DNA of 64,000 bases from a virus (lineage: Duplodnaviria; Heunggongvirae; Uroviricota; Caudoviricetes), in IMG/VR virus record IMGVR_UViG_3300044798_000244, positions 1 to 64,000 of that record; one strand, 5' to 3'. Of the stretch, positions 2,793 through 64,000 are shown one piece after another (position 1 is the stretch's first letter; each line of letters starts with the position of its first letter). The notes under the pieces were generated by a model. It saw nothing but the letters and a program-made list of their open reading frames with translations, had not been told where the DNA came from and searched no databases. Both the position numbers and the translations under genes were made by a program.

Positions 2793-2803
2793 ACTATATT
2801 ATA

Positions 2804-3229
2804 CTAGGATTCCATCTCAATCAATTCCACATCAACTGAATCCAGTTTGCAAATCTGCCTAAAGGTTGGGCTGATGTTACCAGCCTCGTCCTGTTGATAA
2901 CGAACATACACAGAAGCAGGAGCTGGGGTAACATCTAAAGTCAGCACACCTGTCGCATAATTAACAGTGCCTAAATATGTATAGGCGCCTACAGTCCCAG
3001 AAAACGATCCTGTTCCATCACCATTATCGCTATCTGTTATCTGATAAACATCCCCAACAAACACCCGGACTGTTTCAGGTTTGATGTCTGTGGCATCTAA
3101 TGCTTCGCCCCAATTGCATAATGATGAATACGTTGAGGAAAGCGCCCTCTTAATCTCGAGCGTCATATTGACGTAGGCTACCCCATCAAGATTGTCTATT
3201 GCCGCAAGAACATGACTATACTTTATCAT
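2804..3229 (-). CDS. baseplate protein, gpI-like by position
   Basis: 141-aa ORF immediately after the gpJ-like gene in the P2-type V-W-J-I order. No diagnostic motif. Confidence 0.3.
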   Translation of the reverse strand: MIKYSHVLAAIDNLDGVAYVNMTLEIKRALSSTYSSLCNWGEALDATDIKPETVRVFVGDVYQITDSDNGDGTGSFSGTVGAYTYLGTVNYATGVLTLDVTPAPASVYVRYQQDEAGNISPTFRQICKLDSVDVELIEMES

Positions 3230-4980: not shown

Positions 4981-5004
4981 ATTATTATACTCCCTGCCTA
5001 TGAA

Positions 5005-12514: not shown

Positions 12515-13279
12515 TTAATTTCCTAACTCGATAAAATTAGCTAGTTTCACAAGTAGTTTAGGTGTATCTGTCAGTTCGTGTTCCCAAATCACTAAGGTCT
12601 TGTAGCCTTGGGATTCGAATAATTTGATTCTCTCTTGCTCATGCTGTGCTTCTGGAATACCTGTTACTGCTTGTCCGTGCCAGTAATCACCAAACAGTTC
12701 AATTAGAAGAGGTCTGGAGGTATGGACGAAGTCAGGGCATTTACCTGCAATAATCAGTTGACCATCTCCGACGAAACGAAACAGACCAGGGGAGCTACTA
12801 TTTATAATGGTTTGTAAGAACTTCTCAAGCTTATTCTGAGAAACTTGTCTGGCCTTCATCTGCTTAGCTACATACTCAGAATCTTGCCAAAGCTCTTTTT
12901 GGGCTTCTCTTAGCTTCTTGCGAGTTTCAGAAGAACGATTTCTATTAGCATCACCTATCTTTTTACGTGTCTCAGCAGAAGGATTTCTTTTAGCATCACC
13001 TATCTTCTTGCAAGTTTCAGGAGAAAGAGTTTTTCCTCGAAGGGCATCACTTTTCTTCTTGCACGTTTCAGGAGATTGGTGCTGTCCATAGTTAGGGCTG
13101 TTTTCACCCTTCATTTCACCTCTTGTAGATCTGCAAGAAATGCACTGACAACCTTCTTTGTGGAGATCACCTCTTCTATTTCTACAGGAAGCACATTGAC
13201 AATCTTCTTCGTGAAGATCACCACGCTTAGCCTTGCAAATGCAACACTGACAATCTTCTTTATGTGATTTTCTACTCAT
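12515..13279 (-). CDS. free-standing homing-endonuclease-like protein (zinc ribbons, NUMOD3, Vsr-like nuclease)
   Basis: HKEDCQCCICKAKRGDLHEEDCQCASCRNRRGDLHKEGCQCISCRS. NUMOD3-like repeats (SPETCKKIGDAKRN and others). PDFVH..LIELFGDYWH..GYKTLVIWEHEL. Paralog of 2115..2792. Confidence 0.6.
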   Translation of the reverse strand: MSRKSHKEDCQCCICKAKRGDLHEEDCQCASCRNRRGDLHKEGCQCISCRSTRGEMKGENSPNYGQHQSPETCKKKSDALRGKTLSPETCKKIGDAKRNPSAETRKKIGDANRNRSSETRKKLREAQKELWQDSEYVAKQMKARQVSQNKLEKFLQTIINSSSPGLFRFVGDGQLIIAGKCPDFVHTSRPLLIELFGDYWHGQAVTGIPEAQHEQERIKLFESQGYKTLVIWEHELTDTPKLLVKLANFIELGN

Positions 13280-13952: not shown

Positions 13953-13979
13953 GATATTATACTCATCAGAGAGAAATCT

Positions 13980-26294: not shown

Positions 26295-26567
26295 TTAAAT
26301 TTTTCGATTATATATCACTCGCTTAACTTTAGTAATAACACCTTTTGGTATCACAATAACGCCACCTACATCATCATTATCACCAATTGTGCTGGCCAGT
26401 CGAATGACCATAGCATCTTGATTTAGAAGCCAGCCAACTGATACACATTCGAGGGACTCTGTTTTCCCTGCTTCTTCTTGGGAAATCCAAGAATCTGAAG
26501 AAACAATGTCGTTCCAGTAGCAAACAAGAAGGTCTGCATATTTGAATCTCGCCCAGTTGATTTTCAT
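26295..26567 (-). CDS. hypothetical protein
   Basis: 90 aa. Its ATGA start overlaps the stop of the upstream endonuclease gene. Confidence 0.35.
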   Translation of the reverse strand: MKINWARFKYADLLVCYWNDIVSSDSWISQEEAGKTESLECVSVGWLLNQDAMVIRLASTIGDNDDVGGVIVIPKGVITKVKRVIYNRKI

Positions 26568-27373
26568 TGGTGCTGGACCCCAATAAAATTAAGCATTTTC
26601 TGAGTTAAGAGATTTACATCTTTCAACTCATGTTCCCAGATTACCAAGGTCTTGTAACCCGCTTCTTCAAACAGGTTACTTCTTTCTTGTTCGTGCTGCT
26701 TCTCAGGTACACCTGTTACTGCTTGGGAGTGCCAGTAATCACCAAAAAGTTCAATGATCAGTTTCTTATCTTCATTAACGAAATCGGGGCACTTACCAGA
26801 GATAATTTTCTTGCCATCACCAGTAAACTGAAATCCTGCAGTGATCTGGATAATCCATTCTGCAAGAAATATCTCAAGTTTGTTCTGAGCTACTTGTCTG
26901 GCAACCATCTGTTTGGCTACGTATTCAGGATCTTGCCAATGTTGAGTTTGTATTTCTTTCAGCTTCTTGCAAGTTTCAGGAGAACGTTTCTTTCCTCTAT
27001 TACTATTTGCTCTTTTCTTGTTTTCTTCAGGGGAACGAATTCTTCCTCTGTTAGCATCTTGCATCTTCTTAAGAGTTTCAGAAGAAGAATGACATTCACC
27101 TCTTTTATTCTTGCAAGAAGCACATTGACAATCGTCCCTATGAACTCTTCTTCTATTAGAATCACCTATCCTCTTACAAGCTTCAAACGAAAGATGGTGT
27201 CCATAGTTAGGATTATTCTCACCTTTTGTTTCACCTCTTTTAGATCTACAAGAAGCACATTGGCAATTCTCTAGATGAGGTTCCTTCCGTTTAGCTCTAC
27301 AAACTCCGCACGGACAATCTTCTTTATGTGGTTTTCGACCCACTATTATTGCCTTTTCAAAAATACCACCCAA
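26564..27373 (-). CDS. free-standing homing-endonuclease-like protein (zinc ribbons, NUMOD3, Vsr-like nuclease)
   Basis: HKEDCPCGVCRAKRKEPHLENCQCASCRSKRGE...DDCQCASCKNKRGE. NUMOD3-like SPEENKKRANSNRGK. LIIELFGDYWH...GYKTLVIWEHEL. Confidence 0.6.
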   Translation of the reverse strand: MGGIFEKAIIVGRKPHKEDCPCGVCRAKRKEPHLENCQCASCRSKRGETKGENNPNYGHHLSFEACKRIGDSNRRRVHRDDCQCASCKNKRGECHSSSETLKKMQDANRGRIRSPEENKKRANSNRGKKRSPETCKKLKEIQTQHWQDPEYVAKQMVARQVAQNKLEIFLAEWIIQITAGFQFTGDGKKIISGKCPDFVNEDKKLIIELFGDYWHSQAVTGVPEKQHEQERSNLFEEAGYKTLVIWEHELKDVNLLTQKMLNFIGVQHQ

Positions 27374-28439: not shown

Positions 28440-29030
28440 TTACGTACCTAGCGTATAACCAGTTTGCAAGTTGGTTATACTTCCCCAAGTAAACATCCCG
28501 GCATTTATAACTTTGAATGCGGCCGAGCTAAGGAAGCCCTTCTGCGACATAAGGTCGCTGGTCGTCAGCGTCGGGGTCGCGAATAAAGGTATGTAGGGGC
28601 AGTATATAAATCCCGCGTGCAGGTAGTCCGGACCACGGAACCCTAAGGTGTACCGATTGGTACTCTTGAAGGGGTTCTGGATCACAGTCACCTGATTGTT
28701 CAACACACCAATCTTCACAGGACCCGTCGGCGTCAACTTACCAAGGTTCGAAACAGGGCTGAAATGATCCTTCCCAAGCTGCATAATGACCCGGGCAACA
28801 TTATTACCACAGATCATGAAATTCGCCGTAGCACGCTTGGTTTTCTCGAAGATAGCATTTGAACCCTGATAGATACGATCAAGGAACTCCAGCTTCTTAA
28901 AGACCCAGGCCTCACCCTGCGACGGACGAGCATCCCAATCAGACACCTGCGTAGCCGCATCAGCACCTTCGGCCGCTTCATCGATCATATCGAGACCGGT
29001 CTGGTCGATGGTGAACTTACAATTTGTTAC
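28440..29030 (-). CDS. gp23: major capsid protein gp23, exon 2 (C-terminal part)
   Basis: ANFMICGNNVARVIMQL and LGFRGPDYLHAGFIYCPYIPLFATPTLT match T4 gp23 (GNFIIASRNVVNVL; VGYKGPNEMDAGIYYAPYVALTPLRG). The frame is open upstream of the listed Met as far as 29030. Confidence 0.7.
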   Translation of the reverse strand, partial: VTNCKFTIDQTGLDMIDEAAEGADAATQVSDWDARPSQGEAWVFKKLEFLDRIYQGSNAIFEKTKRATANFMICGNNVARVIMQLGKDHFSPVSNLGKLTPTGPVKIGVLNNQVTVIQNPFKSTNRYTLGFRGPDYLHAGFIYCPYIPLFATPTLTTSDLMSQKGFLSSAAFKVINAGMFTWGSITNLQTGYTLGT

Positions 29031-30445
29031 TCACCTTATAGTGGGGTAGGTCATTTCTGCCTACCTCTGCATGTTACCATGCAGTTCAGACTATACCTTC
29101 ATCCCGTTATCCTATACTCCGGGAGGCTACCGTAGCCTCTACAATCTCTTGTAGAGACATAGTCGTTACACTGCTTTTTAAGCAGCTCGGTATTGTCCTC
29201 AGCATTACCTGGTAGGATGTCCACCGAATTGAGTAGCTTTCTAAATCGTTATTACTAACAATTCGAGGCCAAGTTACTAACCTCGCCACCAAGAAACTTC
29301 ACAAGCTCAGACTCAAGATCAATCCCATGCAATCTGTTACTTAGTAACCTATCTCCTGATAGGCGGATGAGTCATTTCTGCTCATCTCTACATGTCACCA
29401 TGTAGTTCAGACTATATCATCAACCAATGAATTGGTTGGCCGCCGTAGCCTCATGGATCACTCCAAAAGACATAGTCGTTACACCATTGTCATTGAAAAG
29501 AAACTTCTCAGTCCAGATAAGAAAACCTAAATTATTTTCTTTTGCGAAGATAGAAGCAGCTTTGAATTTTATCTGATTTAACTCATCTGATATGAAGATC
29601 TCAGGTTTTACTTCAACCAGAACTTGTTCTCCATCTTGTAGAGATACAAGAAAATCAGGTAGATAGTTATGAATGCTTCCATCCTTCAAAGTATACGCAA
29701 TAGAAAAAGGTTCAGCAACAACATCAAGAACATCAACACAAGCATCTAGAACTAACAAGGCCCGCTTCTCATAAGAAGATCTGTAGAAGACATTTTTGGA
29801 AAGCTGTGAAAGAAATAACCAACCTCGTTTGAAACAGGAAGGGCTGTTATTTCCTTCTAATTGAATCCTCTCTATCATAGATCGAGACATTTTAGATTTG
29901 GTCTCGAGCTTTCGAGGATAGGCAAGCTTCGCCATCCTCTCATCCGTTTCCTTTGTCAGGCCTTTATTCCATGCTGGACGATTTGCAGATGGATTTCCTT
30001 CCCCTGTTCTCTGCAGACTTATCTTCATCAATCGAAAATTATCTGTTTTCGTCAATCCTTTATTCCAAGGATCCTTGTGACCACGTTTCATTGCTTCTAT
30101 AGTTGTCTCTGGTAACTTTCTTCCTTTAAGAGATTTTCCATAGCATTCTGAAGAGCAATGAATCGTTGGTGTTGAAGCATAGTACCTAAAAACTTTCTTG
30201 CATATAGGACATATGCTCTCAACTGTTCTAGTATGCTTTCCTTTACCATTATGACCATGTAGATATGTGTTTCCTAACTTTACTACCCCACCACATCCAC
30301 AAGCACATAAACGAGTTGTTGCATCTGACTGAGTCATTTACTATTATACTTTTCAAAGATCTGGCTCGGTATTATCTCAAAGAGACGTCCACCGAATTAA
30401 GCAGCTTTACAACACACATTGCTGTATGAAGGGCCCATTTTATTA
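29006..30445 (-). mobile_element. putative group I intron, about 1.4 kb, interrupting the capsid gene and carrying an endonuclease ORF
   Basis: The capsid reading frame is broken. Exon 1 ends AAIDMQKA-stop and exon 2 resumes ...TGLDMIDEAAE, aligning with contiguous T4 gp23 (SIELAQDLRAVHGMDADAE). The flanks are non-coding and hairpin-rich, with GTTCAGACTATA / AUAGUC-type elements. Confidence 0.55.
29420..30337 (-). CDS. intron-encoded homing-endonuclease-like protein: zinc ribbons, NUMOD-like repeats, and a PD-(D/E)xK nuclease
   Basis: CACGCGG..HGHNGKG; CPICKK; repeats GHKDPWNKGLTK / RPAWNKGLTK. C-terminal YLPDFLVSLQDGEQVLVEVKPE fits PD...(E)VK. Confidence 0.55.
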   Translation of the reverse strand: MTQSDATTRLCACGCGGVVKLGNTYLHGHNGKGKHTRTVESICPICKKVFRYYASTPTIHCSSECYGKSLKGRKLPETTIEAMKRGHKDPWNKGLTKTDNFRLMKISLQRTGEGNPSANRPAWNKGLTKETDERMAKLAYPRKLETKSKMSRSMIERIQLEGNNSPSCFKRGWLFLSQLSKNVFYRSSYEKRALLVLDACVDVLDVVAEPFSIAYTLKDGSIHNYLPDFLVSLQDGEQVLVEVKPEIFISDELNQIKFKAASIFAKENNLGFLIWTEKFLFNDNGVTTMSFGVIHEATAANQFIG

Positions 30446-31324
30446 AGCCTTCTGCATATCAATCGCGGCACCCAGTGACCACTTAGCGCGCAGTGGGAAG
30501 TCAATCGCTTCCACAGCGGACTGCGTCACCGTCACGTTAACCTCAGGCACCCCATCCCGATTAGTGTATGCATCTACAGGCAGATCATACTGATAATCAT
30601 AGGTGACCAGAATAGTCGATCCACTATAACCAGCTGCAACTGTGAAGGAATACACACCAGCAGCCGTAATCGACCCATTTCCAGTGATTCCATCTCCGGT
30701 GATAACACCAGCAGCACTGCACGTACCTAACGTGGTATACGTAGTTCCAGATTTGGACTCAACCTTGGTATTCTCAAGATTGATCAGACCAGGAGCCTGA
30801 ACGACAGTTCCAGACTTAGCTCCGCTACCAGTTCCAACTGACTCACGAACAGTGCGAGCCATCGCATACTGACGCTCAGACTTTCCAGTCGCATGACCGG
30901 TCTTAGCACCGATCATCGTGTCGCCAGCAGTCACCTCACCCTTAGTAGTGCCGTACTGAACATCCAGATAGAACACGGAAGCAATACGCCGATCAATCGC
31001 CTGAACGATGGCAACCTCATTAAGGACCAGCGTCGGGATCAAGGCGGCAATCACAGGCAGTTGTATGCCAAGAAAATTCACCGAGTCCTCAGTCGTGGCC
31101 TCGAACACCTTGCTGTTCTGGCGGCAACCACACTCAATAATGGCATTGTACAAGCACTGTGCAATGTTACGCTGCTCATAAACCGAAATCTCCCGGCCCT
31201 GAGTCTCCTGAACCCACTTTCCAACAGATCGAACGAAGGGACGAATCTTGGGATGCTCCAACAGAGCCGCCCGTGACTCGTCGATCTTTTTCATCTCCAA
31301 CGAGATGGCTTCCTGAATATTCAT
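30443..31324 (-). CDS. gp23: major capsid protein gp23, exon 1 (N-terminal part). The terminal codons and stop are probably intronic.
   Basis: PVIAALIPTLVLNEVAIVQAID matches T4 gp23 RRAIPNLIAFDICGVQPM. AIDFPLRAKWSLGAAIDM matches AKSRQLKAAYSIELAQDL. AAGGAGA ribosome-binding site 8 nt upstream of ATG at 31324. Confidence 0.7.
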   Translation of the reverse strand: MNIQEAISLEMKKIDESRAALLEHPKIRPFVRSVGKWVQETQGREISVYEQRNIAQCLYNAIIECGCRQNSKVFEATTEDSVNFLGIQLPVIAALIPTLVLNEVAIVQAIDRRIASVFYLDVQYGTTKGEVTAGDTMIGAKTGHATGKSERQYAMARTVRESVGTGSGAKSGTVVQAPGLINLENTKVESKSGTTYTTLGTCSAAGVITGDGITGNGSITAAGVYSFTVAAGYSGSTILVTYDYQYDLPVDAYTNRDGVPEVNVTVTQSAVEAIDFPLRAKWSLGAAIDMQKA

Positions 31325-31355: not shown

Positions 31356-34007
31356 TTACATCCAGTTCTTCATCAGACCACCAACCTGCTTATCCACCTT
31401 GTCCTGCTCAGGATCTACCGACCGCCCACGAACAACCACGTCCCTCAGTGACTGCGGGTGAAGTGCACCACGCTGAGCTACCTGGACGAGGCTCTCAATG
31501 AGTTGGTCGACATCTCCAAGGCTCTGACACTTCTCAAGAAGTGCTTGAGTGTTGTCATCAGCCTCCAGACGACAAGCGGACAACCGCCGGTCAAAGTAAT
31601 CCTTCAGAACTTCTATTCGACCCTCACAGATCGAATTACTAGCTGTTTTCACGAGCTCCTGCTGATGAGCAGTATGCTGTACTGAGATCTTCTCATTCAG
31701 TTTCTTCACATCCGGAGAAATTTTCTTGGCTTCAACGACCTGAGAAGCTTTCTTCTCAACCATAGTCCGAAGACCAATAATCTCAGTAGCTGCTGTTTGA
31801 AGTTTTTTAGACATGACCCGAATCTGAACATCGTTCTGACTTTTTGATGCTTCAAGCAGTGTGTCCCGCTCAGCACGAGTGCACGCTTCTTTAATCCGAA
31901 GATCAATCAAGGCGTCCAGAGGAGGAACAGTAACCTTAGATTCTCTCGGAGCATTTTGAGCTGCAGCAATCCTATCAGTAGTATTCGAAAGAGCTTGGTT
32001 GACCAGTTGATCAGTCTCCTCCGGAGTTCTATCAATCATTCGAGCAACGATAGGAACGGCTTCCCCATAATTAACATTTTTCTCTTTCTCAACTCGAAGG
32101 AACAATTTTAGAAGTCGGACCTCATCATCGGCAGTTACAAACTCATCTTCATCAACCTTGGACTCATCAGTCACCTTCTTTCGAGGTTTGTTGATCACAA
32201 TATATCCAATACCTTCTTCACCTTCATAGTCCTGAGCTATCTTAATCGCAGCTTGTTTAGAACCTGGACCATACTCGTCACCTGCTGGAAGGACAACAAA
32301 CCAACCCTCTTCTCCTTCATATCTAATCACCTGGGTCTTTTCGTATCTCTCATCAACCTTGGACTCATTAGGAATACCTTTTGGTGAAGATCGGGACCAC
32401 TGATCCTCAAGCTCATCTTCAGAACCTGCTTCTCTTTGATCTTCAGTATCATTTTCACCTTCAATTTCACTTTCAAATGGAACTTTGGTAAGAGAAGCTA
32501 TGTTTTTACCGGCCTGCATGATTTCAGATTTATCTGCTGATCTAATAAGAGTGATAGGTTCTGGTTCACCTTCAAAAACACCACAAAGACGATACTCTAT
32601 TTGTCCTTCCTCATCCTCGTGCGGACACACGACCAGAGACGTAAGACCTTCAACTGTCTCAGCGATCTTGGACTCATTCTGAGTCTTTCGTTTATACTGC
32701 CGGAGTTCGGATTTCAACCAATCATCACTACCATTACGTATGAGGTTCTGAGCAGCCGCATAGTCAAGCTTGTCTGGTGATCCAATACGATCTCCCCTAT
32801 CTTCTGGAGTCTCAGCGTTGATCTTTTTCATCCACCAAGTGACGAACTTCTTATCATAAGCCAGATTTTTCGCTACCACATCTGAATTCTCAGCGATCTT
32901 GGACTCGAATGGTGACATCTCTTCTTCCTTTTCGGCCTCAGGAGAACCAGGTCCTTTCATGTCCTCTAGAGGCGGATTCTCTGCAGCCATCTCACCAGCA
33001 TTATCAACTTCAGTTCCAGTAAGCCCAACATCTTCAGATGGAACAGCAGGGATCGCTGATGCGAAAACATCAACAGAACCATCAGACCGAATAGTTACCT
33101 TATCAGATCCTTCTACGGTCAGCATCTTGTTAGAGCCATCCGGAGTGGTAACTACGATGTCCATTCGACCTTCAGTAATCTTTTTGACAGAAGCTTTCGT
33201 GTATTTCATCTCACCTATCTTGGTTTTGATAGTCAAGGTCACGGCCTTACCTTCAGTCAGCTTGCCACTCTTGATCTGCTCAGCAACTGTGCTTTTGTTC
33301 ATTTTTGGTTCCTGTCCTTTAAGGCACTTGCAAGCACCACAATTCTGGCACTTGTTCTTGTGATTGCACCGCATTGATTCGAGAATCCGATGAGCAAACT
33401 GCTTCTCACCAGGTTTACTTTCGTTGGACTCAGCTGTATTACGAACAGCGTTAATAATGTTCCTCTTTACATCTAAAGGCACAGCATCAAATGTTGATGG
33501 ATCGGCAGTCGTGTCAGTTGTAATATATTTATAGCTCTCAGGAACAACTCGCTTAAAAGAAGTATCCCCTTCTTTTACCTCTTCAAGATCCCCTTCCGCA
33601 CGAGTACTGCATCCTACCTGGCATCCTGCCTCGAGCAAGGTGTTAACAATCCGACCACAAGGTGTATCCAGAATATCAAATGTTTGGTAGACCTTATTCT
33701 CATTCTCATCTATCCACATTCTATGTATAACATGAGAAGTCAACTGCAAATCAGATGCTGATTCCTTAGGGTGTTCAGCATGTCCATAAAGAGTTCTACT
33801 TTCCAACTTCCTCTGAAGCTCTTTGTCAGAAAGAACTTTCTCCCAGAGAGCTTGCTCATAAAGCCGGTTGTTAGCATTGGTTTCACCAATGTTACAAATG
33901 TTGTAAGTAACTCTGGCTAACACACCCGAAGGAAGCTTTTCATTTGAACCATGTAACCTGCCTTGTTCAGACATGAATTCATTCAGTATCATACTGCTAC
34001 TCCACAA
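31356..34007 (-). CDS. gp21: prohead core protease gp21, N-terminal about 200 aa, fused to an acidic extension of about 680 aa that may be scaffold- or core-like
   Basis: ETNANNRLYEQALWEKV, LYGHAEHPKES and FDILDTPCGRIVNTLLEAGCQVGCSTRAEGDLEE match T4 gp21 (DTVNRNGRVYPLAVMEAAV; VGELNHPTQHE; AIVLNTPCGRILEGLIDGGVLLGVSSRGVGSLDS). The rest is acidic, with LxE/IxE-rich coiled segments. Confidence 0.6.
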   Translation of the reverse strand: MWSSSMILNEFMSEQGRLHGSNEKLPSGVLARVTYNICNIGETNANNRLYEQALWEKVLSDKELQRKLESRTLYGHAEHPKESASDLQLTSHVIHRMWIDENENKVYQTFDILDTPCGRIVNTLLEAGCQVGCSTRAEGDLEEVKEGDTSFKRVVPESYKYITTDTTADPSTFDAVPLDVKRNIINAVRNTAESNESKPGEKQFAHRILESMRCNHKNKCQNCGACKCLKGQEPKMNKSTVAEQIKSGKLTEGKAVTLTIKTKIGEMKYTKASVKKITEGRMDIVVTTPDGSNKMLTVEGSDKVTIRSDGSVDVFASAIPAVPSEDVGLTGTEVDNAGEMAAENPPLEDMKGPGSPEAEKEEEMSPFESKIAENSDVVAKNLAYDKKFVTWWMKKINAETPEDRGDRIGSPDKLDYAAAQNLIRNGSDDWLKSELRQYKRKTQNESKIAETVEGLTSLVVCPHEDEEGQIEYRLCGVFEGEPEPITLIRSADKSEIMQAGKNIASLTKVPFESEIEGENDTEDQREAGSEDELEDQWSRSSPKGIPNESKVDERYEKTQVIRYEGEEGWFVVLPAGDEYGPGSKQAAIKIAQDYEGEEGIGYIVINKPRKKVTDESKVDEDEFVTADDEVRLLKLFLRVEKEKNVNYGEAVPIVARMIDRTPEETDQLVNQALSNTTDRIAAAQNAPRESKVTVPPLDALIDLRIKEACTRAERDTLLEASKSQNDVQIRVMSKKLQTAATEIIGLRTMVEKKASQVVEAKKISPDVKKLNEKISVQHTAHQQELVKTASNSICEGRIEVLKDYFDRRLSACRLEADDNTQALLEKCQSLGDVDQLIESLVQVAQRGALHPQSLRDVVVRGRSVDPEQDKVDKQVGGLMKNWM

Positions 34008-34798
34008 ATAGACCTGATTTTATCTTGAAAGAAAAGAGTCCAGCAACTTCTGTTTCCATTCACTCTGGAATTACAGGCAGCACACAATGTTATTAAGTTT
34101 TCTTGTTTACAGTTCTCTTTGATGTAATCTATGTGATGAACATCTAGCTCTCTGTAATTCTCCTCTCTTGTTCTACCACAAAGTTGACAGGTATTACCAT
34201 CCCGCTCTCTAATACAATTACGGAGCTTGTTGTTAAAAACACAAGGATATTCATCTTGGGATATTCCACCACACCAGTTGCAATTCTTTTCACCTCTTTG
34301 AGCATCACCTATACATTTCTTAGCATCTTCAGTATGATGACCACCGGAGAAAGTAACTCCTAGACCACGTTTACCAAAGTTAGCATTATTCACTCCTGTA
34401 TGCTTCTGCCTATTCTTCTCAATAGCCTCTTCTGTATGTTTATGGCCCTTCCAAGGATTTAGATCGCCCTTACCATTGTGACCATGAATAAATTCAGGAA
34501 TTCCAGCAGCTCTGTGCCACTCCTTAATAGAAATTCGTTCCCCGCATCCGCACTCACACAGAGGAGCCTCTTCTAGTCCACTTAGTATTCTATTCACTCT
34601 TGAATATAGTGAAAAATCACTTATCTTCTCATGGTTGAGAATGTACTGAGGAATTCCATTTTCTTTGTGAGAAGCTCGTACCTTTATCAAACCTTCACAT
34701 CCACAAGCACAAACTCTATCTGGATAGTACTCCAGATTCTTGTAGTCGTCCCAAACGAAATCATGTATGGAATTTTTAAGAATCATAAATGATGGCAA
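33989..34798 (-). CDS. HNH homing-endonuclease-like protein with zinc ribbons and a NUMOD-like repeat
   Basis: CACGCEG...CECGCGE...HGHNGKG. GHKHTEEAIEKNRQKHTG. C-terminal HNH motif LDVHHIDYIKENCKQENLITLCAACNSRVN. Overlaps the start of the gp21 fusion gene by 19 nt. Confidence 0.6.
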   Translation of the reverse strand: MPSFMILKNSIHDFVWDDYKNLEYYPDRVCACGCEGLIKVRASHKENGIPQYILNHEKISDFSLYSRVNRILSGLEEAPLCECGCGERISIKEWHRAAGIPEFIHGHNGKGDLNPWKGHKHTEEAIEKNRQKHTGVNNANFGKRGLGVTFSGGHHTEDAKKCIGDAQRGEKNCNWCGGISQDEYPCVFNNKLRNCIRERDGNTCQLCGRTREENYRELDVHHIDYIKENCKQENLITLCAACNSRVNGNRSCWTLFFQDKIRSICGVAV

Positions 34799-42115: not shown

Positions 42116-42299
42116 TCCTTCTGCTTCGAGGTGTGCATTACTTTCTTATCTGGAGAAGGCATTCAGTGATTTGTTGTTTTTTGAGAAGTGATTGAAAGGA
42201 CATAGAATCAGATCCTCTGTACTGTAGCGTATTATACTGTAAACAGGGGTCGGTTTGGGACAGAAAATCAAGAATTCTAAAGAATGTTTTGTGTGTGTG

Positions 42300-49763: not shown

Positions 49764-49827
49764 CTTCCTTGAATGTAAGCAAAATCAGACTTATCAGGAT
49801 CCCTAAGGTATCGTCCTTGTCATGCTA

Positions 49828-50346
49828 TTATACTGGTTTATCGTGTTCAGGACCATAAAGAACTGGTATCAGTCCTAGTATATCTTTCAGCTGGTTAAAT
49901 GACACAGGAGTAAAGTTATTAGCATCTACTCCTACATCCCACTGCTTTCCAATTGGAGGAAGTGTACCATGCGAGTGTCCGTACAGCTGCCAGGCTCCGT
50001 GGTGGGCCCTTTCCCAGGTTCTCATTGCGTAGTGGCACACAACCACGAACTGACCTTCTATCATCTTTCTCCACATGAACTTCGATGAATCTGGTAACCA
50101 AAGGTCGTGGCTTCCTTTGATGAAGATATGATTACCGTTGAGTCGGGTAATAGTACTCAAAGCACAAACTGGTTTCTTAAACCAACCGAAGTCTCCAGCA
50201 TGGACTGTGATGTCATTCTTTCCAACTACTCGATTATGATTAGCAATCAAGGTTTCGTTCATCTCTTCTACGGTAGCAAAGGGACGATGACAGTACTCGA
50301 TGATCTTTGCGTGGTCGTAATGCTCATCAGCTGTGAAGAAGTGCAT
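49828..50346 (-). CDS. calcineurin-like metallophosphoesterase
   Basis: GDFG, GNHI and GHSHG motifs in the order typical of the metallophosphoesterase fold. 172 aa. Confidence 0.55.
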   Translation of the reverse strand: MHFFTADEHYDHAKIIEYCHRPFATVEEMNETLIANHNRVVGKNDITVHAGDFGWFKKPVCALSTITRLNGNHIFIKGSHDLWLPDSSKFMWRKMIEGQFVVVCHYAMRTWERAHHGAWQLYGHSHGTLPPIGKQWDVGVDANNFTPVSFNQLKDILGLIPVLYGPEHDKPV

Positions 50347-56578: not shown

Positions 56579-57190
56579 CTACTCAATGCAATCCCCAGGC
56601 TCTAAATTCAACATTCGAATCCGATGCTTAATTCGAAGAAGGCTGTCATGTATTCTACTGCTAATAGTATCACTGCACAACCCCCGCATGGCCGCAATCT
56701 CATTCAACGGAAGCTTCTGAATTTGATGAAGAATGATAAGCTCGAGCTCCTCCTGAGATATCACGTTATCATTGAGCATTCTTTTGAACACTCCATCGAG
56801 ACACTCAGAAGTATTCTCTTGACACAAACCTTCTTCTGGTGGCACCCAGATCTCTTCAAGTTCTGAAGCATTTATTACTCTCGGATGGGGAAAAGCTTGC
56901 AGGATCTCATTCTTGATATATGAAACAAGCCAAGCTGGAATTTTCTCAGGATCTTCTTTAGTAGGAATTCGGAAGGTAGCTTTGTAGATACCTACAGCAC
57001 CAGTGTGATACAAACTATCAAGGGCTTCGTTTCTAAGATGTTTATAATGATGTCGAAGCTGATGAACTACGTGCAAAATCAGCAAATGGGTTTTTGTCAA
57101 GATCTTTTTGAACATCTCATCATCTTGTGTTCTCTGATACTCAGATACAAGATCTCTCAATACCTCATTTGATATTCTCCGAGCGTCCAT
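56579..57190 (-). CDS. RNA polymerase sigma factor, sigma-70 family (regions 2 and 4)
   Basis: Region-2-like LDSLYHTGAVGIYKATFRI. Region-4 helix-turn-helix ISQEELELIILHQIQKLPLNEIAAMRGLCSDTISSRIHDSLLRIKHRI. Confidence 0.55.
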   Translation of the reverse strand: MDARRISNEVLRDLVSEYQRTQDDEMFKKILTKTHLLILHVVHQLRHHYKHLRNEALDSLYHTGAVGIYKATFRIPTKEDPEKIPAWLVSYIKNEILQAFPHPRVINASELEEIWVPPEEGLCQENTSECLDGVFKRMLNDNVISQEELELIILHQIQKLPLNEIAAMRGLCSDTISSRIHDSLLRIKHRIRMLNLEPGDCIE

Positions 57191-63654: not shown

Positions 63655-64000
63655 TTGCTGTGCTCCAGTAGATGCTTCTGTGTTACTTTTGTTAGAGGAC
63701 TACTGCACCAAGGACACGTAGTAAGCTGAAATAGAAGTTTTTGCTTTTCCTGCTCCATCTTACTCACTGAATCATCTGCCCCTTGACCTTCATTCACGCA
63801 CTTTCTAAGTGCTTCTACAATCGTATACAGCTTCTGAAGGTTGGTGCACAGTGTATTATACTGTTGGACCAGCTGTTCTCTTCTACTTAGCACCTCGTCA
63901 AGATTGGCTGGGAACACAACCTTATTCGCACAAGCAGACCTCAATCCTTCAATGAGAGCTTGGAGAGCATGGTACAAGCTTCTTTGTTGCAAGAAAGCTT
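63651..64000 (-). CDS. hypothetical protein, 5'-partial, with a C-terminal CPWC
   Basis: The frame stays open to the window edge. The listed start is a TTG, so the N-terminus lies beyond 64000. Confidence 0.35.
   Translation of the reverse strand, partial: AFLQQRSLYHALQALIEGLRSACANKVVFPANLDEVLSRREQLVQQYNTLCTNLQKLYTIVEALRKCVNEGQGADDSVSKMEQEKQKLLFQLTTCPWCSSPLTKVTQKHLLEHSK

Follow-up and report, generated by a model that had tools for sequence, protein, structure and literature searches.

The major capsid gene of an uncultured, T4-like virus assigned to the Caudoviricetes, a homologue of T4 gp23, is with high probability composed of three exons, between which lie two phage-type group I introns that are paralogues, each with an extra P7.1 helix, and of which the first is presumably mobile. 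The gene lies in a 64,000-nucleotide (nt) stretch of IMG/VR record IMGVR_UViG_3300044798_000244, here called the window, in which all genes are on the minus strand. Gene callers break it up into two fragments and a "hypothetical protein," and an exon of 17 residues escapes them. A preliminary description had taken both fragments for gp23 halves, and indeed, both belong to the gp23 family (Pfam PF07068; cut-off, 24.4 bits): the N-terminal open reading frame (ORF) of 293 amino acids (aa) at 30443..31324 scored 30.5 bits, and the C-terminal ORF of 182 aa at 28440..28988 scored 86.6 bits. The best match of the capsid protein to a cultured phage has only 29% identity. The 305-aa ORF described between the halves was found at 29420..30337 (918 nt), and the three ORFs are flanked by a prohead-protease gene (31356..34007) and a gp13-like gene. 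The locus was also assembled independently (L001; Logan SRR35360736), with identity to the window over 4602 of 4602 nt, and therefore, it is not an assembly artefact.

In the direction of transcription on the minus strand, exon 1 (30446..31324; 879 nt; residues 1 to 293), which is supported by the ORF list, the Pfam Gp23 match and a gapless alignment with homologues, is followed by group I intron 1 (29330..30445; 1116 nt), which carries the 305-aa ORF and is supported by a partial Rfam match, covariation and splice sites fixed by homologues. Then come exon 2, a mini-exon of 50 nt (29280..29329) recognized by translation and alignment, and group I intron 2 (29020..29279; 260 nt), which has no ORF and is supported by Rfam RF00028, the z-score of its fold and relatives at the same site. 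Exon 3 (28440..29019; 580 nt including the stop codon; residues 310 to 502) is supported by the ORF list, the Gp23 match of 86.6 bits and the alignment. Two splice models were compared, and the exon set 31324..30446, 29329..29280 and 29019..28440 was chosen; it gives a 1509-nt ORF coding for a 502-aa protein of ~55 kDa before processing. In a collection of 5.8 billion proteins we found 308 homologues, mostly uninterrupted and 500 to 504 aa long, and the restored reading frame matches the uninterrupted ones in length and sequence. Alignment with ~60 of these intron-less proteins, which had been proposed as a means to place the splice sites, did so: there were no gaps through ...DMQKA/HGIDLESELVKFLGGEV/KFTIDQ... 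(a slash marks a junction). The spliced product is identical across both junctions to the uninterrupted protein P0001 (88% identity overall), which has the same exon 2 residues, and these are conserved in all ~60 aligned homologues. The other option, in which exon 2 ends at 29279 and exon 3 starts at 29015, was rejected, since it lacks a K/R found in all homologues.

Exon 1 ends with ...CAG AAG GCU, and intron 1 starts with UAAUAA, which provides in-frame stops, and ends with ...AAGUAACAGAUUG, its terminal G being at 29330; the terminal G of intron 2 is at 29020, and the 3' ends of the introns, ...ACAGAUUG and ...ACAAAUUG, are both G. Exon 2 codes for HGIDLESELVKFLGGE, and the V310 codon takes its first two bases from it. 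The predicted spliced junctions are CAGAAGGCU/CAUGGGAUU and GGCGAGGU/UAAGUUCACC, or CAGAAGGCT/CATGGGATT for junction 1 and GGCGAGGT/TAAGTTCACC for junction 2, and an exon-skipped form would read CAGAAGGCT/TAAGTTCACC.

With one ORF and one apparent gap between two large capsid ORFs, the locus has the same look as the T4 td and nrdB introns, and it had been described as one 1.4-kb insert, which would make 30445..29020 a single group I intron whose internal repeats are peripheral elements. If this was the case, exon 1 should be joined straight to exon 3 (879 plus 580 nt), but this join creates a GCU/UAA stop and a frame shift. Because of this stop, which arises when the mini-exon is skipped, each intron must be spliced out separately. 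Moreover, the halves are not contiguous in gp23, as had been assumed: 26 residues separate AAIDMQKA from TGLDMIDE, and 17 of them come from the 50-nt exon, the in-frame translation between two complete sets of core elements, which is conserved in every homologue. The two-intron layout is also shared by the related capsid gene L128, whereas in L002 only the first of the two sites is occupied. The single-intron model was thus rejected in silico by the stop at the exon 1-exon 3 join and the loss of conserved residues, and we give it practically no credence. What had been taken for 390 nt of 3' noncoding DNA is composed of 90 nt of intron 1, the 50 nt of exon 2 and the full 260 nt of intron 2, and exon 3 starts at 29019 rather than 29030. 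A td/nrdB-like, presumably self-splicing group I intron with an endonuclease ORF is retained from that description, in line with the Rfam matches, covariation and frame restoration, but there are two paralogous introns around a mini-exon and not one.

The covariance-model search for a group I core that had been suggested picked up intron 2 and the 3' half of intron 1. Intron 2 matched Rfam RF00028 over the full length of the model at 29289..29067 (51.8 bits, against a gathering score of 50); this match follows the 305-aa ORF and does not surround it. The 3' half of intron 1 gave a partial match at 29543..29388 with 34.7 bits (E about 1e-6 in a relaxed scan). ORF-less relatives of these introns scored 53 to 70 bits and ORF-bearing ones 34 to 43 bits; L127_o, an ORF-less homologue of intron 1, reached 62.8 bits and intron 2 of L128 70.5 bits. 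By reading the sequence, we found the core elements AAAGCUNCUYAAUUCGGUGGAC...AUACCGAG, GUGUAACGACUAUG and AUAGUCUGAACUNCAUGGURACAUG twice, a first set that flanks the ORF and a compact second set downstream of it; the R/S-like elements noted earlier are present as GUGUAACGACUAUG and GAUAUAGUCUGAAC. Folding of intron 2 as a single sequence gave a z-score of -6.45 and recovered P1, P2, P4-P6, P7.1, P8, P9 and P9.1.

For covariation, nine introns were aligned (window introns 1 and 2, L002 B, L002 C, L124 C, L127, L128 i1, L128 i2 and L129) with the ORF bodies removed (378 columns), and pairs were counted on hand-annotated helices, with P3 treated as a pseudoknot. Standard pairs were present in 95.5% of 625 cells, compared to 79.8 ± 1.0% in shuffles and 30 to 42% with slid partners, and 48 of 72 pairs had compensatory double changes (6 to 13 with slid partners) in helices from P2 to P9.2, including the P3/P7 pseudoknot. 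P3, P4, P6, P7, P9 and P9.1 were paired to 100% across the nine introns, and an additional P7.1 hairpin lies between P7 and P3'. A group I core with P3 to P9 and a P3/P7 pseudoknot is thus solidly backed by covariation. P1 of intron 1 is formed by exon GAAGGCU and guide GGCC(C)UUC, and its 5' splice site is marked by a U.G pair; the internal guide sequence GGGCCCUUC (30428..30436) was read from the sequence and compared across the nine family members. P1 of intron 2 is CGAGGU paired with GCCUCG, again with a U.G pair. Indeed, the U.G pair at the 5' splice site and the terminal G are found in all nine introns and in four more from IMG/VR. A terminator-like hairpin at 29285..29264 turned out to be P1 of intron 2, and an Rfam sR14 match was noise. 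Among the blastn matches listed for the 3' domain of intron 2 were the tail-gene intron region of Cluster J mycobacteriophages (~77% identity, in BAKA/Optimus to the P7'-P9.1 region) and Lysinibacillus, Bacillus and T4-type phage records.

The 305-aa ORF of intron 1 is placed in the loop of the long P6a helix (CUUUGAAAAG paired with CUUUUCAAUG; -9.4 kcal/mol), for which covariation is visible by eye in the L002 and L124 introns as well. The 3' ribozyme domain of intron 1, from P6a' to P9.2 plus the terminal G (29330..29500), is supported by the partial Rfam match, covariation and the P6a duplex. The last ~27 codons of the ORF double as P6a', P6', P7, P7.1, P3' and P8, and its stop codon is in J8/7. 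Since these 3' codons are also ribozyme helices, the closest homologues have an odd tail, ...LFNDNGVTT......ATAA.

Toward its N terminus, the protein has conserved Cys/His clusters (C11/C13/C15, H27/H29, C43/C46 and C61/C65), the only basis of the zinc ribbon reported before, which was not confirmed. Of the NUMOD-like repeats, two copies of [PA]WNKGLTK are visible, but the Pfam NUMOD3 profile (PF07460) gave 14 bits, below its cut-off of 20.4; several homologues are annotated with PF07460 in precomputed annotation. The PD-(D/E)xK nuclease domain was confirmed: the C-terminal domain is TnsA-like (Pfam PF08722; 49.2 bits, above the cut-off), E190, P227 and D228 are invariant in 38 homologues and E242 and K244 nearly so, and the catalytic residues of a TnsA-type PD-(D/E)xK domain, E190, D228, E242 and K244, are intact. 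In fold comparison, Tn7 TnsA (PDB 1t0f and 1f1z) was the best structural match, with the same catalytic residues; a PDB sequence search with the endonuclease gave nothing significant, and TnsA was identified by fold comparison only. The protein is not a TnsA subunit of a Tn7-type transposase: NCBIfam TnsA_like gave 48.5 bits against a cut-off of 110, the match is limited to the N-terminal nuclease domain of TnsA, the gene is in an intron inside a viral head-gene module, and there was no transposase among the window ORFs scanned. Neither did it have the Vsr-like domain and EDxHD motif of the EDxHD/I-Bth0305I class, and the I-Ssp6803I family was absent both from the Pfam matches at E values up to 10 (PF11645) and from the listed structural matches (2ost). 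We consider the 305-aa protein a putative homing endonuclease with a Cys-rich/NUMOD3-like N terminus and a TnsA-type C-terminal nuclease.

In 50,697 phage genomes, no full-length relative of the endonuclease was found. Only the nuclease domain had matches (33 to 37% identity), which were to T4-like cyanophage gp4 proteins labelled "head completion" and to a small number of other proteins, and this domain (29420..29880) also matches PHROG 218 "head closure." Since TnsA-type nucleases are not an established homing family either, the protein might instead act in head completion like gp4 or as a splicing helper (maturase), or be a domesticated nuclease, and be encoded in the intron only by chance. 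However, a NUMOD3-like/Cys-rich N terminus in front of a C-terminal nuclease mirrors I-Bth0305I (PMC3239194), the ORF is present or absent together with the intron, deletion derivatives are common, every relative that we traced is intron borne in the same target gene, and three other NUMOD3 nucleases of standard homing types are encoded nearby. A role other than homing is therefore improbable. The "head closure" label was rejected as a function, since it is explained by distant similarity to gp4. Either the endonuclease has a common origin with gp4-type proteins, or some of the proteins annotated with "head completion" are in fact nucleases.

The promoter-like motif GTATAATA is located 4 nt upstream of the start codon of the endonuclease gene (30342..30349). 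The motif was counted seven times in the window, each time on the coding (minus) strand (2797..2804, 4983..4990, 13955..13962, 30342..30349, 42230..42237, 49826..49833 and 63854..63861), with 1.19 copies expected and seven copies reached in none of 100 shuffles, and four copies directly precede start codons, at a distance of 3 to 5 nt. Possibly, GTATAATA is a T4-late-like, -10-only promoter that gives nearly leaderless mRNAs. From its position just upstream of the start codon, the endonuclease ORF seems to be served by a signal of the virus itself.

If intron 1 is mobile, alleles with and without it should exist, and in fact, the introns are optional. The close relatives L170 (88% aa identity) and L133 have intron-less alleles; L170 and the window have 78% nt identity overall and 87% around the junctions, and 31 nt are identical across junction 2. 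All endonuclease homologues that could be traced sit in introns of gp23-like genes (L002, L124-L127 [21 contigs], L128 and L129). In L128, the layout of the window recurs, with an endonuclease intron, a mini-exon and an ORF-less intron at exactly the same GAGRU/U site; the intron 2 site is also occupied in L168 and L158. ORF-deleted introns are present in L158, L127_o and L128_i2. L158 has the remnant GTATAAT-ATG-ACT-TTC-CTA-ATT-TGG-ACA (M-T-F-L-I-W-T) and L127 the remnant ATG...AAT-AAG-AAT-GGT-GTA-ACG-ACT; since the start codon is fused to C-terminal endonuclease codons in L158, L127 and L128, these are deletion derivatives. Introns in capsid genes had been called rare for T4-like phages, but in this clade they are not: in 7 of 37 IMG/VR relatives, about a fifth, the capsid gene is interrupted, and this is a lower bound because one search motif spans an insertion site. 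Across relatives, insertion sites, at least six in number, are at about aa 88-98, 293-296, 310, 314, 349, 362 and 447-452, all located sites are in invariant protein patches, and the genes hold up to three or more inserts each. Genes with three or more introns are found among L002 (3993..8622), L124, L127, L158 and L166. Two back-to-back Rfam group I matches in one insert of L166 (5349..6002), near aa 447-452, look like another tandem intron pair, and the ORFs in introns at aa ~93-98 (278 and 391 aa) are unrelated and did not match any Pfam family.

Around the KAHG codons, the insertion sites of homologous introns are staggered, at +0 in the window, +3 in L129, +7 in L128 and L167 and +8 nt in L002 and L127, and an L166 intron lies 12 nt downstream of the window intron 2 site, at a second GAGAU/U. 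At every staggered site, the guide sequence fits the local exon; the +0 guide of the window (UGGGCCCUUC) and the +8 guide of L002 (UAGUCCCUUC) differ in two bases. The 5' domains of the introns group by insertion site, and for the 3' ends, similarity is highest between introns of one genome (78% identity between introns 1 and 2 of the window and 86% between L128_i1 and L128_i2), which suggests that neighbouring introns exchanged sequence. The patterns of staggering and exchange rest on few sequences. Staggered sites could result from guide-directed reverse splicing or from imprecise homing followed by adaptation of the guide. Quite tentatively, the NUMOD3-like plus TnsA-type proteins may be an unrecognised family of intron endonucleases specialised on gp23, whose introns relocate to nearby sites by re-targeting of the guide; we would sooner doubt than accept this.

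In the mechanism that we propose, each intron would fold as its own ribozyme on the late pre-mRNA and be removed by two transesterifications, with the attack of guanosine following the U at 30446 for intron 1 and the U at 29280 for intron 2. Exon ligation after the terminal G at 29330 or 29020 would then give the 1509-nt mRNA and the 502-aa capsid protein. The endonuclease would be made from the P6a loop of intron 1, probably via its own promoter-like signal. In a mixed infection, it would cleave a capsid allele that has no intron, within the conserved stretch coding for KAHGIDLE, and repair off the intron-bearing genome would copy intron 1 into the cut allele. Co-conversion of flanking DNA accompanies intron homing in T4, and ORF-less intron 2, only 50 bp away, would be carried along in this way and thus hitch-hike with intron 1.

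Several points weigh against this reading. Splicing and DNA cleavage are deduced from sequence. Intron 1 by itself is under the Rfam gathering score, which results from the 918-nt ORF splitting the ribozyme core. The ORF covers about 80 nt of this core, and thus, translation and folding could interfere, and it has no obvious Shine-Dalgarno sequence. NUMOD3 scored below its cut-off, the similarity of the nuclease domain to T4-type gp4 head-completion proteins would allow for another role, and intron 2 of the window, unlike the introns of L158, L127 and L128, has no recognisable ORF remnant. With splicing deduced in this way and the ORF overlapping the core, one could also imagine a decaying locus, in which the introns splice poorly or not at all, the virus is defective and its capsid gene has become a pseudogene, all the more since similar adjacent introns risk exon skipping, as in SIOphi TerL and Twort (PMC11878797). 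However, the exons are intact and conserved right up to the junctions, all core helices are intact and have compensatory changes, the catalytic residues of the endonuclease are preserved, the surrounding 64 kb are a complete-looking structural module, and the identical sequence was assembled twice. Decay is therefore very improbable, and a functional three-exon gene remains the preferred explanation.

Capsid-gene introns, multi-intron genes and intron-dense phages are documented, and thus, the architecture of the window is of a known kind. As in T4 td and nrdB (I-TevI/I-TevIII), the window has phage group I introns with the ORF looped out from a peripheral helix, in-frame stops just past the 5' splice site and a promoter-like signal within the intron for the endonuclease; they are inserted where an essential gene is most conserved and are optional among relatives. 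Unlike in td and nrdB, the host gene is a capsid gene, a second intron follows at a distance of 50 nt, the ORF extends into the ribozyme core, and the endonuclease is TnsA-type instead of GIY-YIG or HNH and has its DNA-binding part at the N terminus. Three introns are described for Twort orf142 (Landthaler and Shub 1999, cited in PMC11878797); in Bastillevirinae, polymerase, TerL and RNR genes have multiple group I introns with a risk of exon skipping, and phiNIT1 RNR has a small exon between two introns (PMC11878797). These phages share with the window several group I introns per gene, a small internal exon and the skipping risk, but target gene and lineage are different, and the adjacent introns of the window are paralogues that seem to have exchanged sequence. 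For Cluster J mycobacteriophages (LittleE and BAKA) and lactococcal phage Tuc2009, experiments have demonstrated the splicing of group I introns in capsid and tail genes, which are likewise highly expressed virion genes (PMC3706429); those genes have single introns, the capsid is HK97-type, and the HNH gene of LittleE is on the opposite strand. Intron-dense genomes have been described for Jug phages (PMC12880540).

With regard to the endonuclease, I-Bth0305I is of the EDxHD family and from the recA intron of phage 0305phi8-36 (PMC3239194). Like the PD-(D/E)xK homing family I-Ssp6803I (PF11645), the window protein is a restriction-fold nuclease in a group I intron, in the case of I-Ssp6803I a bacterial one (PMC3424549); unlike Tn7 TnsA, it has no TnsA C-terminal domain and no Tn7 context and is fused to homing-type DNA-binding modules. 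In a survey of PD-(D/E)xK enzymes, the I-Ssp6803I and Vsr-like families are the only ones given as homing enzymes, and TnsA appears solely as a transposase (PMC3424549). In the literature searched, the coverage of which was limited, we found neither a TnsA-type nuclease as an intron-encoded endonuclease, which is weak evidence of novelty, nor an intron family dedicated to the gp23-type capsid gene. Apparently new are the type of endonuclease and the site-hopping pattern; the layout has known precedents.

Three free-standing NUMOD3 nuclease genes are located among the structural genes (12515..13279, 26564..27373 and 33989..34798, all on the minus strand), two coding for NUMOD3 plus DUF559 (Vsr-like, I-Bth0305I type) and one, directly upstream of the prohead-protease gene, for NUMOD3 plus HNH. 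Together with the intron ORF, there are four homing-type nucleases of three catalytic families within 22 kb. The prohead protease (31356..34007, minus strand) has a Pfam Peptidase_S77 domain in its first ~220 residues, followed by an acidic, repeat-rich extension of ~660 residues that is possibly a built-in scaffold; its homologue in L002 (921..3989) has 1022 aa. Pairs of tRNA genes are present upstream of the head gene cluster in L002 (696..847) and L141 (1019..1169), and the window has none.

Named bins that contain the capsid gene or the endonuclease (P0007, P0027, L128 [P0126], L130 and L131) are archaeal only: Hodarchaeota, Thorarchaeota, Heimdallarchaeaceae, Ca. Borrarchaeum weybense (179-kb contig) and a Woesearchaeota bin. 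A GTDB scan gave no bacterial genome match, and PHROGs were of no further help on the host. The T4-like gene set and the -10-like promoter motif speak against an archaeal host, and a weak, sub-threshold match to sigma-70 region 4 at 56579..57190 also points away from it. The bin labels could come from mis-binned sediment viruses or could be a real hint to an archaeal host; an Asgard archaeon as the host is a less likely proposal than the gp23-specialised endonuclease family above, and nothing relevant on Asgard viruses with gp23 was found in the same limited literature. If the host were an Asgard archaeon, group I introns would be seen here for the first time in a virus of archaea.

For annotation, fragmented capsid calls are to be expected across this clade, with up to three or more introns splitting the gene. 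A TnsA-type nuclease combined with modular DNA-binding motifs would be a third restriction-fold lineage of intron endonucleases, and its defined, highly conserved natural target would be useful to study the evolution of homing specificity and possibly for engineering. Natural data on the spread of group I introns to new sites are rare, and the staggered related introns with their matched guides provide such a set; if these introns indeed relocate by guide re-targeting, they would attest, in nature, to guide-directed, reverse-splicing-like transposition instead of pure endonuclease homing. For the virus itself, the most abundantly expressed virion gene would depend on two accurate splicing events, and on more elsewhere in the clade.

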